Shown piece by piece: positions 2,441 through 5,293 of a stretch of 5,293 nucleotides of DNA. The notes below the pieces were generated by a model. It was not told where the DNA came from, did no database searches, and saw only the letters and a program-made list of their open reading frames with translations. Position numbers and translations under genes: made by a program. The stretch's first letter is position 1. The number at the start of each line of letters is the position of its first letter. The stretch comes from a virus (taxonomy: Duplodnaviria > Heunggongvirae > Uroviricota > Caudoviricetes), in IMG/VR virus record IMGVR_UViG_2695420658_000009. The stretch is one strand, 5' to 3'.

Positions 2441-2494
2441 TGGCGGTTTCTGGCCTGCATGGCATGATTTGTGCTTTTGGACGGGAGATTCAGC

Positions 2495-2821
2495 GTGCTG
2501 ATTGGCTATGTAAGGGTATCAACAAATGACCAGAATACAGACCTGCAACGAAACGCTCTTGTTTGTGCAGGATATGAACAAATATTTGAAGATAAATTAA
2601 GCGGAACAAGGACAGGCCGACCTGGATTAAAACGTGCTTTAAAGCGCCTTCAAAAAGGTGACGCACTGGTTGTCTGAAAACTGGACTGACTGGGGCACTG
2701 TATGCGGCATCTTGTCGTGCTGGTGGTGGAAGCCTAGAAAAAGTATCGGGTGTTGCTGAACCGTGTTGATACATCAACTGCACCTGATATTGAGTGGCCT
2801 ACGAACCCTGTCAGGGAGTAA
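2495..2821 (+). pseudogene. pin: pin/gin-family serine DNA invertase, N-terminal 60 codons intact, then nonsense codons and an in-frame fusion to the 3' end of a tfa gene
   Basis: GTG at 2495 follows a GGGAGA Shine-Dalgarno (2483-2488). Translation VLIGYVRVSTNDQNTDLQRNALVCAGYEQIFEDKLSGTRTGRPGLKRALKRLQKGDALVV* matches the Pin/Gin N-terminus including the catalytic-serine motif YVRVSTNDQ. In-frame continuation is [45 protein letters not shown]. Stops are at 2675, 2687, 2735 and 2819. The last about 30 codons are a Tfa C-terminus (…[24 protein letters not shown]…), not invertase. Confidence 0.7.
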
Positions 2822-2993
2822 TCATTGGGATTATGCCGCAGCACGTCTTAAGCANCTTAGATGGTAAATGTCTCGCCTGTGCTATATTTTGTTTTTCGGT
2901 TAGTTAAATATCGTACGTTCATATTTGAACGTTCTGCCGGAATGCATTATCAATAGAGGTAAAGTCGCAACCCCAAATCGTAAAGGAAACCGT

Positions 2994-3018
2994 AGCACGT
3001 CTTAAGCAAGAACGTGCT
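2994..3018 (-). terminator. possible intrinsic terminator downstream of the methyltransferase gene
   Basis: Inverted repeat agcacgt (2994-3000) / acgtgct (3012-3018) with an 11-nt loop, 11 nt after the methyltransferase stop. On the minus strand it is followed by the U-rich stretch UUUCCUUUACGAUUU. Stem is short and the U-tract is interrupted. Confidence 0.3.
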
Positions 3019-3029
3019 GCGGTTGGATG

Positions 3030-3848
3030 CTATTTTTTCCCTGAAGCGGAAAACATTACTACAGTACCTTGAACCCTGGTTTTAACATTCTCGAAATGCT
3101 CTGAGAGTATATGTGTTAAGCCTTCTTCGGAATCTTTTGTGTTTGAAAAGATGCCTTTCTGATTGTAAATGCGCATCAGTTTTTGACCGAAGCTATTGTG
3201 CACAACTCCATCGCCAAGAATTGTGGCTCCGTATAGAGTTCCATCGTCAGTTAAGGCCTGCGCCGCATTGCGTATTACACAGCTTTTTGTAGATATATTT
3301 CCAGGCAGGCAGTGAAGAAGGTAAAACATGGAAATGGAATCAAATTGACCATGTAACGCCGCGGGATAAGGTTCAAAAACATCATGGCTAATTTTATGTT
3401 TAATTTTTGATTCCCCAGCCCTTGTAGATGCCGCGTTCAGGCTAGCTTCGTTCAAATCCATTAAAGATATCAGACTACTCTCAGGTACGTGAGTAAGGTA
3501 AAACCCAGTTCCAACACCAATATCCAGATGGTTGTTACCTAAATGTTCCAGAAAGTGTGGAAGAAGGTGTTCCTTTGTAGGACATCCCCATGCAAGCCGA
3601 TTTGATACTCCCAAAACCCACCAGTCATAAAGCTTTAGGGTAAGTGGTGTGTAAATTTTAGCCCCATCATCTGTGTTTNNNNNNNNNNNNNNNNNNNNNN
3701 NNNNNNNNNNNNNNNNNNNNNNNNNNNNNNNNNNNNNNNNNNNNNNNNNNNNNNNNNNNNNNNNNNNNNNNNNNNNNNNNNNNNNNNNNNNNNNNNNNNN
3801 GTATGCTTCGATACAGCAGGAGCCGAATGGCTGGAAGACCGTCACCAC
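3030..3848 (-). CDS. class I SAM-dependent methyltransferase (small-molecule/O-MTase-like; no DNA-MTase motifs seen); N-terminal part partly masked
   Basis: ORF of 272 codons with stop TAG at 3030-3032. It has the SAM-binding motif I HLDIGVGTGFYL followed by an acidic strand end (LISLMDLNE) and a later FDSISMFYLLHCLP segment, the canonical Rossmann-fold MTase order. No (D/N/S)PP(Y/F/W) or PCQ motif is present. The start is uncertain: GTG at 3846-3848 with no clear SD, and bases 3679-3800 are N. Confidence 0.65.
   Translation of the reverse strand: MVTVFQPFGSCCIEAYXXXXXXXXXXXXXXXXXXXXXXXXXXXXXXXXXXXXXXXXXNTDDGAKIYTPLTLKLYDWWVLGVSNRLAWGCPTKEHLLPHFLEHLGNNHLDIGVGTGFYLTHVPESSLISLMDLNEASLNAASTRAGESKIKHKISHDVFEPYPAALHGQFDSISMFYLLHCLPGNISTKSCVIRNAAQALTDDGTLYGATILGDGVVHNSFGQKLMRIYNQKGIFSNTKDSEEGLTHILSEHFENVKTRVQGTVVMFSASGKK
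3679..3800. other. masked/unresolved bases (122 N) inside the methyltransferase 5' region
   Basis: Run of n in the input. Confidence 1.
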
Positions 3849-3879: not shown

Positions 3880-4230
3880 ANNNNNNNNNNNNNNNNNNNN
3901 NNNNNNNNNNNNNNNNNNNNNNNNNNNNNNNNNNNNNNNNNNNNNNNNNNNNNNNNNNNNNNNNNNNNNNNNNNNNNNNNNNNNNNNNNNNNNNNNNNNN
4001 NNNNNNNNNNNNNNNNNNNNNNNNNNNNNNNNNNNNNNNNNNNNNNNNNNNNNNNNNNNNNNNNNNNNNNNNNNNNNNNNNNNNNNNNNNNNNNNNNNNN
4101 NNNNNNNNNNNNNNNNNNNNNNNNNNNNNNNNNNNNNNNNNNNNNNNNNNNNNNNNNNNNNNNNNNNNNNNNNNNNNNNNNNNNNNNNNNNNNNNNNNNN
4201 NNNNNNNNNNNNNNNNNNNNNNNNNNNNNN
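3880..4230. other. masked/unresolved bases (351 N) between the methyltransferase and the Rha-proximal ORF
   Basis: Run of n in the input. All three listed ORFs crossing it are open only because N cannot encode a stop. Confidence 1.
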
Positions 4231-4536: not shown

Positions 4537-5094
4537 TTAAAACCGCATCAACCTTTCCACCAATTGTTCTTTACGGGCAACGATCCACCCATGTTGCTCC
4601 AGATAAAATTTAAACCGTTCCAGAGTGCATACCATCGCATCGGCGGGGACTTTTTCTGTGAACTCGACCTGACCGTGTTTATCGAAGTGGATCAGTAATG
4701 CGCATCCATTATTTGGGGCGGGGGAGTTTTGTGCTGCAGGAGGACGTTTGTGGAGTTCTTCTTCCATTGCGTTAAATTTTTCAATGTAAGCTTCTTTTAG
4801 TCTGGCTGCTTTTTTGCCAGTAAATCCCATTACGAGGAACATGAAGCCGTCTTTTGTGATCAGGTAGCATCGTGATTCACGTTCTGCGCCGTTGCCAATT
4901 TCGACAGTCTGAACATCGGCCGAAAAGTTGGCTGATGTAAATTCGGGAGAGCAGTCGAGTGTGTCAATCTTAGCTAAAACGTGTTTATGTTGTTTATCGA
5001 AGTAGTCGGCAACAGCTTGAGAGGTGGTAACCAGGCGACCATCTTTGAAAAAGACTTTTGGTGACTCGTTAGAAAAAGTTATAGCTGTATTCAT
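4537..5094 (-). CDS. rha: Rha-family phage regulatory protein (antirepressor-like, Phage_pRha domain)
   Basis: ATG at 5094-5092 is preceded by GGAG with a 9-nt spacer. Translation MNTAITFSNESPKVFFKDGRLVTTSQAVADYFDKQHKHVLAKIDTL...YLITKDGFMFLVMGFTGKKAARLKEAYIEKFNAMEEEL... carries the Rha signature (LxMGFTGKKAxxxKxxYIxxFNxME). Stop TAA at 4537-4539. The TTG at 5109 in the ORF track is unlikely to be the start. Confidence 0.8.
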   Translation of the reverse strand: MNTAITFSNESPKVFFKDGRLVTTSQAVADYFDKQHKHVLAKIDTLDCSPEFTSANFSADVQTVEIGNGAERESRCYLITKDGFMFLVMGFTGKKAARLKEAYIEKFNAMEEELHKRPPAAQNSPAPNNGCALLIHFDKHGQVEFTEKVPADAMVCTLERFKFYLEQHGWIVARKEQLVERLMRF

Positions 5095-5104
5095 ATGTGA
5101 TGAC

Positions 5105-5118
5105 TCCAATTAATTGGA
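5105..5118. promoter_or_regulatory. perfect 14-bp palindrome TCCAATTAATTGGA overlapping the rha ribosome-binding site
   Basis: Exact dyad symmetry. The GGA of the rha Shine-Dalgarno (minus strand) is the last three bases of the palindrome. Candidate operator or SD-sequestering hairpin. Confidence 0.3.
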
Positions 5119-5121
5119 TGA

Positions 5122-5155
5122 TCACCACCTCTGACGCCAATCAGGGAGGTGGTGA
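5122..5155. promoter_or_regulatory. inverted repeat with 10-bp perfect arms in the rha leader/upstream region
   Basis: tcaccacctc (5122-5131) and gaggtggtga (5146-5155) are exact reverse complements separated by 14 nt; an inner tga/tca pair extends the stem. Confidence 0.3.
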
Positions 5156-5254
5156 GACGTACAGGGTTGGCGTAACCGGTCATCACAAAACCCGGCGCGG
5201 ATTTCTCCGCCCCTGCACGCCCCACCATAATGCGAATGTGGCAATGCTTAACGC

Positions 5255-5274
5255 AAAAAAAACCGCAAACGCGG
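5255..5274 (-). terminator. possible intrinsic terminator reading leftward (minus strand) upstream of rha
   Basis: On the minus strand: CCGC-GTTT-GCGG hairpin (plus coordinates 5263-5274) followed immediately by TTTTTTTT (plus 5255-5262). The stem is only 4 bp, so weak. Confidence 0.3.
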
Positions 5275-5293
5275 CTATGCGTTGTGATGTTAT

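Follow-up and report, generated by a model that had tools for sequence, protein, structure and literature searches.

A probable phage P1 immI-type antisense RNA module ahead of the rha gene in an Escherichia coli prophage

The stretch of tailed-phage DNA considered here (IMG/VR record IMGVR_UViG_2695420658_000009, Caudoviricetes), 5,293 nucleotides (nt) long and called the window throughout, carries on its minus strand the gene rha, which encodes an antirepressor-like regulatory protein. A sequence-only reading had pointed to two stacked symmetries over the leader of this gene (5105-5155) and had attributed them to an operator and/or an RNA structure. The locus is very probably an antisense module of the type found in the immI region of phage P1, in which an IsrK-type small RNA (sRNA) with the elements a1 and b1 is followed by the C4 antisense RNA and then by an antirepressor-like gene. 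The supposed rha leader is the downstream part of an IsrK-C4-rha transcription unit, because the C4 and isrK matches, the promoter and the IsrK terminator all lie upstream of it; the C4 gene at 5232-5145 had been overlooked. The gene governed by the C4/IsrK-type module is in this case rha. The locus joins a class of antisense-controlled antirepressor modules that is already known (Weinberg et al. 2010, PMC2864571) and is not a new type of system.

Over its final 874 bases the window matches E. coli chromosomes with 99.8% identity, 447 records covering at least 80% of those bases, and the stretch is found in about 450 complete E. coli genomes, ST131 included. In E. coli strain 4/1-1 (locus L001; window position = L001 position - 1581) it is the right end of a lambdoid prophage in ompW, beside trpA, and window 5080-5293 and L001 are identical. 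The window and L001 were scanned with Rfam at gathering thresholds, and two RNA genes were found upstream of rha. The elements of the module are, in the order of transcription:

5256 to 5293, minus strand: 3' part of the IsrK-type sRNA (c4-a1b1 class); the full RNA, 5330 to 5256, runs beyond the end of the window.
5145 to 5232, minus strand: C4 antisense RNA gene, Rfam RF01695 (clan CL00128), 75.9 bits against a threshold of 45, E = 1.4e-13, model positions 1-87 of 87.
5179 to 5187, minus strand: antisense element b', UGUGAUGAC, eight bases in the 12-nt loop of hairpin 2 and the first stem base of the 3' strand, at the position of P1 b'.
5167 to 5173, minus strand: antisense element a', ACGCCAA, in the single-stranded C4 junction before AACCC, at the position of P1 a'.
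5134 to 5140, minus strand: target a2, UUGGCGU, the 7-nt complement of a', in the 14-nt loop of the inverted repeat.
5096 to 5107, minus strand: rha translation initiation region, made up of the Shine-Dalgarno sequence (SD) GGAG at 5107-5104 and target b2, GUCAUCACA, at 5104-5096, which ends 1 nt short of the AUG.
4537 to 5094, minus strand: rha gene, 185 amino acids (aa), Rha-family regulatory/antirepressor-like protein, start codon ATG at 5094-5092, PGAP WP_001348267.1.

The isrK family (RF01394) matches the identical E. coli locus at L001 6911-6837 with 72.2 bits against a threshold of 50. Directly upstream of this sRNA is the promoter TTGACA-18-TATATT (L001 6947-6918), which agrees with the consensus at 11 of 12 positions, and the sRNA ends in an intrinsic terminator formed by a stem at 5276-5261 and a U tract. 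The decoy b1, CAUCACA, is located within IsrK at 5289-5283, and a second decoy, the copy of UUGGCGU called a1, lies beyond the window. The C4 RNA has a 17-base-pair (bp) closing stem around two hairpins, and this canonical fold (-47.4 kcal/mol) is its minimum-energy fold. Its stems covary among 27 homologs, both bases being changed in 9 of the 17 pairs of the closing stem and in all five pairs of hairpin 1, while helix 3 is only 55% paired in the alignment since loop 2 varies in length and is misaligned by MAFFT. With the 77-nt C4 annotated in P1 as a guide, the mature RNA would by homology span approximately 5226-5148 and be excised as an RNA of about 79 nt; in control of the P1 type RNase P makes the 5' cut. 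The product of rha scores 95.3 bits against Pfam PF09669 (Phage_pRha; cut-off 29.9) and 81.3 bits against TIGR02681 (cut-off 45.95). Its start is 50 nt past C4, and no gene lies between the two, an equivalent of P1 icd having been looked for there.

The two unpaired elements of C4 are complementary to sites in the rha leader. In P1, b' (UCACUAAC) occupies the loop of the second C4 hairpin and a' (CUGUCAA) the junction ahead of AACCC. In the window, b2 is a perfect 9-nt complement of b' with a duplex energy of -13.8 kcal/mol, and the a':a2 duplex has -10.3 kcal/mol. Target a2 is 5-11 nt past the end of the Rfam C4 match and 8-14 nt past the predicted mature 3' end, and both a2 and b2 are placed equivalently to the annotated P1 sites.

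These complementarities are maintained across related loci. Megablast against phages gave only partial matches (76-84% identity, to the C4/IsrK part of the query) and therefore a distant blastn, which provided 15 phage or prophage loci, and a protein-anchored IMG/VR scan, which provided 79 loci anchored on Rha relatives, were used, together with P1. An nhmmer profile placed C4 in 48 of the IMG/VR loci, and the divergent C4s of L026, L058 and L076 were parsed by hand. The isrK family or the Rfam c4-a1b1 motif precedes C4 in 16 of 16 other fetched loci, most of which have an antirepressor-type gene annotated downstream; the four downstream genes examined with Pfam elsewhere have ORF6N or Bro-N domains, where the gene here has Rha. 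Thirty-six loci yield 25 distinct a'/b' combinations, with 19 b' loops and 11 a' junctions, and in every one of the 25 the downstream leader holds complements of its own a' and b'. For b the perfect match averages 7.96 nt in cognate and 4.44 nt in non-cognate pairs, for a it averages 7.04 and 4.10 nt respectively, and the observed cognate totals were reached by 0 of 20,000 permutations. When 27 sequences are aligned with MAFFT without guidance, each of the five aligned a':a2 pairs is double-changed and 99.2% of the cells are paired. The b':b2 pairing was judged by cognate against non-cognate complementarity and by permutations, not by alignment columns, because MAFFT aligns the leader and the variable loop 2 incorrectly.

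The a' and b' types reassort independently among phages (for example L029/L035, L041/L067/L084 and L083/L031). Two different junctions accompany the loop UUUCCGUAC and three accompany UUGGUUGAU, with matching a2 and b2 each time, which suggests a modular exchange of antisense specificities among prophages.

Both symmetries of the sequence-only reading are present in the DNA. An exact search returns the perfect 14-bp palindrome TCCAATTAATTGGA at 5105-5118, which ends within the rha SD and overlaps the GGA of GGAG, and the perfect 10-bp inverted repeat tcaccacctc (5122-5131) / gaggtggtga (5146-5155) with a 14-nt spacer. On the minus strand the order is inverted repeat, palindrome, SD (5107-5104) and ATG (5094-5092). 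Dinucleotide shuffles of the 3787 non-N bases give an expectation per window of about 0.25 perfect 14-bp palindromes and about 0.10 inverted repeats with 10-bp arms and a 3-20 nt loop. For either symmetry by itself these statistics are suggestive and not decisive, and it is the comparative data that settle the question. At the RNA level the symmetries correspond to three elements:

5146 to 5155, minus strand: 5' arm of the inverted repeat, UCACCACCUC, made up of the 3' strand of the C4 closing stem and 2 further nt.
5121 to 5131, minus strand: 3' arm of the inverted repeat, the 'X box' GAGGUGGUGAU, with the core GGUGGUGA that is near-invariant in 27 loci.
5105 to 5118, minus strand: 14-bp palindrome, as RNA the hairpin UCCAA-UUAA-UUGGA, predicted to cap an SD-sequestering stem; its 3' arm holds the GGA of the SD.

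The 8-bp core of the repeat, UCACCACC / GGUGGUGA, is placed alike in 27 of 27 aligned homologous loci. Its cells are paired in 85% of cases, against 34% with the partner slid by one column, and five pairs are double-changed, as in P1 (CCUGCCACC/GGUAGCAGG) and in the group of L029 (UCGCCACC/GGUGGCGA); only this window has the two outermost pairs (UC/GA). The resemblance of the arms to SD and anti-SD sequences, which the sequence-only reading had noted, is there, but it derives from the sequence ...CACCACC that is conserved at the 3' end of C4 RNAs, together with the complement of that sequence. In predicted folds the GGUGGUGA core has two alternative partners, the C4 3' strand or b2. The 17-bp C4 stem prevails when the full transcript is folded, and the freed box GUGGUGAU (5128-5121) then pairs with GUCAUCAC (5104-5097, that is, b2). 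The inverted-repeat hairpin (-19.5 kcal/mol) is predicted only with the C4 5' strand absent or held open, and forcing that strand to be single-stranded makes the repeat form and the composite SD stem vanish. The repeat was rejected as the dominant fold, being absent from the minimum-energy fold of the full transcript. L047 and 10 IMG/VR loci identical to it have an intact C4 and a2, but in them the X box is degenerate (GGUGUUGA) and b2 and the antirepressor part are swapped for unrelated sequence, so that these loci look like a truncated module.

As RNA, the palindrome is a 5-bp stem of -2.7 kcal/mol with its central four bases as the loop, and the DNA dyad is perfect because the UUAA loop is self-complementary. 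The X-box:b2 helix and this hairpin form a composite stem of -13.9 kcal/mol, in which the SD and the b2/spacer bases are paired with a probability of 0.77-1.0 per base, whether the transcript is folded from the IsrK start, from C4 or as the leader alone. In 20 of 27 loci the minimum-energy fold of the leader pairs the X box with the neighbourhood of b2, and the pairing of the SD region is 0.66 against 0.54 in shuffled leaders (Wilcoxon p = 3e-4, with loci that are not independent). The proposal that rha translation is controlled at the RNA level gains from these results, since the SD is paired in every predicted fold, each of its bases with a probability of 0.78-1.0, and the features are conserved or covarying in homologous leaders. 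The comparison of leaders separates the two symmetries: the core of the inverted repeat is conserved with compensatory changes, whereas the sequence of the palindrome is conserved neither beside the closest Rha relatives (L023, L025, L026) nor in the other homologous leaders. The closest Rha relatives have stems of the type GAUAAUCC...GGAAUAUC in its place, and small hairpins occupy the equivalent position in P1 (AGGUU-GUUA-AACCU), 1720a-02 (AGUUUU-CUAA-AAAACU) and YpM_41 (UUCCA...UGGAA), and also in Stx2c/sal3. A second copy of the palindrome with up to 3 mismatches, or another CCAA-N-TTGG dyad, is not found in the 50-kb prophage.

Together these elements outline how the module may work. A single constitutive-looking sigma-70 promoter would drive the IsrK-type sRNA, and read-through beyond the IsrK terminator would give C4 and then rha. 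C4 would adopt its structure with the 17-bp stem and, by homology with P1, be released as the RNA of about 79 nt; a' in its junction (ACGCCAA) and b' in its loop (UGUGAUGAC) could then pair with a2 (UUGGCGU) and b2 (GUCAUCACA) and block ribosome binding at rha. By the same homology, IsrK would act through a1 and b1. Separately, the leader appears able to hide its own ribosome-binding site, with the conserved box GGUGGUGAU paired to b2 around the UCCAA-UUAA-UUGGA hairpin. The inverted repeat would be the alternative pairing of the same box with the C4 3' strand, available only once the closing stem opens, and would leave b2 and the AUG uncovered.

Several points weigh against this account. The proposed control of rha derives from sequence and predicted folds, and the related loci that lend it comparative support are phylogenetically non-independent. 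The X box already occupies b2 in the predicted ground state, so that C4 would have to invade a stem, and antisense repression may share the control of rha with self-sequestration. The circumstances in which the inverted repeat forms can be suggested only from constrained folds, given its absence from the minimum-energy fold. Target b2 spans the last SD base and the SD-AUG spacer here, while in most relatives it lies over the SD. Experiments on the isrK - orf45 (STnc1160) - anrP locus of the Salmonella prophage Gifsy-1 (Hershko-Shalev et al. 2016, PMC4825925) were explained by IsrK-driven refolding and by coupling of orf45 to anrP. In the same study, constitutive STnc1160, the equivalent of C4, did not relieve the toxicity of IsrK but made it stronger (PMC4825925), and C4 as the sole repressor is therefore a poor fit.

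An alternative that keeps some weight, though it is held only tentatively, is that translational coupling is the main function of the region. It involves an additional feature:

5091 to 5228, minus strand: 45-codon open reading frame (ORF) with its AUG in the C4 5' strand, ending AUGA on the rha start; counterpart of Gifsy-1 orf45.

Ribosomes translating this ORF would cross the dyads, melt the SD stem and re-initiate at AUGA, and the dyads would merely silence rha until the upstream ORF is translated. The length of 45 codons and the AUGA overlap equal those of Gifsy-1 despite differing loop and leader lengths, and in Gifsy-1 the translation of orf45, and the need for it in the translation of anrP, were shown experimentally (PMC4825925). 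The predicted loss of the composite SD stem in favour of the inverted repeat when the C4 5' strand is blocked also fits. On the other hand, no recognisable SD precedes the AUG of the ORF, and the ORF lacks conservation: it ends after only 8 codons in YpM_41, whose C4 is the closest relative, after 14 in P1 and PhiR12_2 and after 33-36 in VT2-Sakai, TL-2011b and phi349, and in another clade it is fused in frame to the downstream gene. For the orf45 region of Gifsy-1, too, conservation of the nucleotide and not of the amino-acid sequence was reported (PMC4825925). Coupling is compatible with the antisense module, and coupling of the ORF to rha may act here as a second layer.

A more general idea, which is rather doubtful at present, is that the GGUGGUGA box is the hinge of a three-way RNA switch common to IsrK/C4 antirepressor modules, with the corollary that the 'Ash' of Pfam and PGAP is not a protein family. 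The box would be paired with b2 and the SD in the off state and with the C4 3' strand in the other. Opening of the C4 closing stem would bring about the second state, and a ribosome that initiates at the conserved AUG within the C4 5' strand is one example of what could open it. In that case the C4 gene would serve at once as antisense repressor, as part of the mRNA and as toggle arm, and IsrK as an anti-antisense decoy for a' and b'.

A genuine protein-coding gene ('ash family protein'), whose 3' end would contain the dyads as incidental coding sequence, is a very improbable explanation of the region. The annotation exists, as PGAP lengthens the 45-codon ORF upstream and calls it 'ash family protein' (WP_001296031.1; L001 6672-6947, minus strand), with a stop that overlaps the rha start, and the translation of IsrK plus C4 scores 53.8 bits against Pfam Phage_ASH (PF10554). 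Against this, the Pfam match crosses the intrinsic terminator of IsrK, the same DNA is above threshold for two structured RNA families, and the base pairs covary while the frame shifts, stops or fuses. The authors of the Gifsy-1 study likewise saw nucleotide and not amino-acid conservation (PMC4825925). 'Ash' as a real coding gene was rejected on the grounds that its frame is broken, shifted or fused in homologs and that the DNA encodes two Rfam RNAs. Here 'Ash' is most likely a translated RNA gene, because the frame is unconserved and the DNA consists of two covarying RNA genes. In several related loci (L089 from PhiR47_1, 832-1980; L090 from mEp460, 832-1983; L085, L087 and L092) which form one clade, isrK and C4 are enclosed in an open frame of some 600 nt, which runs on in frame into the Rha-type antirepressor gene, and the records of this clade list 380-aa 'Rha' or 'transcriptional regulator' proteins that engulf both RNA genes.

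Equally hard to sustain is the explanation that the inverted repeat is a transcription attenuator or terminator between C4 and rha. The hairpin is G+C-rich and stable (-19.5 kcal/mol), and the homologous RNAs of P1 ultimately cause premature termination. The same is described for the homologous RNA of satellite phage P4 (PMC4825925). However, no U tract follows the hairpin (UCAUCCAAUUAAUU), the terminator scan makes no call at the repeat, and the C4 stem outcompetes the repeat in the full transcript.

The least probable explanation is the one put forward in the sequence-only reading, that a dimeric repressor of rha transcription uses the palindrome TCCAATTAATTGGA as its DNA operator: a perfect 14-bp dyad is expected only about 0.25 times per window and AT-rich cores are typical of helix-turn-helix operators, but the palindrome is single-copy in the 50-kb prophage at up to 3 mismatches, is missing from the closest Rha relatives and every other homologous leader, sits some 212-225 nt downstream of the transcription start at the sole promoter-like site, inside a transcribed structured RNA, and contributes only its 5-bp arms to the predicted RNA fold.

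The rest of the window is less informative. Runs of N (1506 bases in total) at 307-862, 1000-1476, 2855, 3679-3800 and 3881-4230 mask parts of the tail-fibre and neighbouring genes, and ORF lists across them are meaningless. The prophage end on the rha side is pieced together from pseudogenes (window 2471-2677, plus strand, and 3030-3848, minus strand; L001 4331-5380). There, a truncated invertase gene of the Pin/Gin type adjoins inverted tail-fibre assembly genes, and a gene for a class I S-adenosylmethionine-dependent methyltransferase is flanked by tail-fibre remnants. Between these invertase and methyltransferase genes, at 2842-3021 on the plus strand, is a full-length match to CssrB (Rfam RF02799, 'Chromosome-encoded Shigella sRNA B') with 191.9 bits against a threshold of 76.

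The reading of the locus as an immI-type module corrects its annotation, in that an 'ash family protein' gene and a supposedly operator-bearing rha leader become two regulatory RNA genes and their target. It also implies that the a2/b2 logic of P1, with many exchangeable specificities, extends to IsrK-type modules before Rha, ORF6N/Ant and Bro-N genes in Stx, Gifsy and other lambdoid prophages. It makes the Gifsy-1 mutants in the literature open to a concrete, testable reading and offers a way into the question of how prophages gate induction by antirepressors.

One of the known systems closest to the locus is immI of phages P1 and P7, where the c4 antisense RNA is followed by icd and ant1/2, an arrangement reportedly described by Citron and Schuster in 1990. 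The P1 record (NC_005856) has a c4 of 77 nt, an a2 site 4-10 nt past C4, a b2 site 11-18 nt before icd to which 'repression of icd ant translation' is assigned, and putative a1 and b1 sites upstream; it lists a2 and b2 as sites bound by C4. The locus resembles P1 in the RF01695 family of its C4, in the positions of a' and b', and in the order of the targets, with a2 after C4, followed by b2 where the next gene has its ribosome-binding site. A hairpin between the C4 3' strand and the downstream box with a2 in its loop is common to both, as is a small hairpin that abuts b2 (AGGUU-GUUA-AACCU in P1 and UCCAA-UUAA-UUGGA here). The controlled gene is of the antirepressor type in both, and second copies of the targets (a1/b1) lie upstream of C4. 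The locus differs in the sequences of a'/b' and a2/b2, and hence in specificity, and it has no icd, the target being the rha start itself, so that the likeness is one of working and not of the P1 gene layout. Its b2 extends from the last SD base through the spacer, while that of P1 ends within the SD; its a1/b1 copies are part of a terminated IsrK-type sRNA, with no C1 operator evident; and it belongs to a chromosomal lambdoid prophage, where P1 is a plasmid prophage.

Gifsy-1 is another close system. It has the same order of IsrK and then C4, an IsrK with its own terminator and a 45-codon ORF over C4 that ends AUGA on the next start; UUGGCGU is the sequence of a1 and also of a2, and b2 is paired with GGUGGUGA. 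The differences are that the downstream domain is ORF6N there and Rha here, that b'/b2 are UCGGUGAU/AUCACCG there and UGUGAUGAC/GUCAUCACA here, and that the Gifsy-1 module is next to antQ while this one is at a prophage end by ompW. An RNA of about 80 nt (STnc1160) is processed from the C4 region of Gifsy-1 (PMC4825925). The searched text of the paper mentions neither the C4 of P1 nor a2/b2, and the paper describes no C4-type pairing of a2 and b2 at the anrP ribosome-binding site (PMC4825925). Nevertheless, its mutants can be placed on the elements described here. In the Gifsy-1 numbering (L096, first AUG at +107), a1 is 26-32, a' is 158-164 and an identical a2 is 192-198, 43 nt before the anrP start; the published mutations G28A and G31A fall in a1, and C159U and C162U in a'. 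Because the mutated bases map exactly onto a1 and a', the published helix b-I (G28:C162, G31:C159) is the a1:a' pairing. Basal anrP translation was highest in the a' mutants, at 484 and 926 units compared with 4, and it still amounted to 224 and 327 units once the a1:a' pairing had been restored (PMC4825925). This partial restoration of repression is as expected if a' also needs to pair with a2.

The seqA - CI RNA - seqC region of satellite phage P4, which the IsrK authors cite as a structural analogue (PMC4825925), likewise has a processed small RNA in a leader with complementary targets up- and downstream. Its output is the termination of transcription of a replication operon, and not the masking of an antirepressor ribosome-binding site. 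In the immI region of phage P22 (sar/ant), a small RNA controls the translation of the antirepressor, as is proposed here for rha. The sar RNA of P22 is a true cis-antisense RNA transcribed from the opposite strand, whereas the regulator in the present locus is encoded on the same strand as its target and would act through short loop complementarities.

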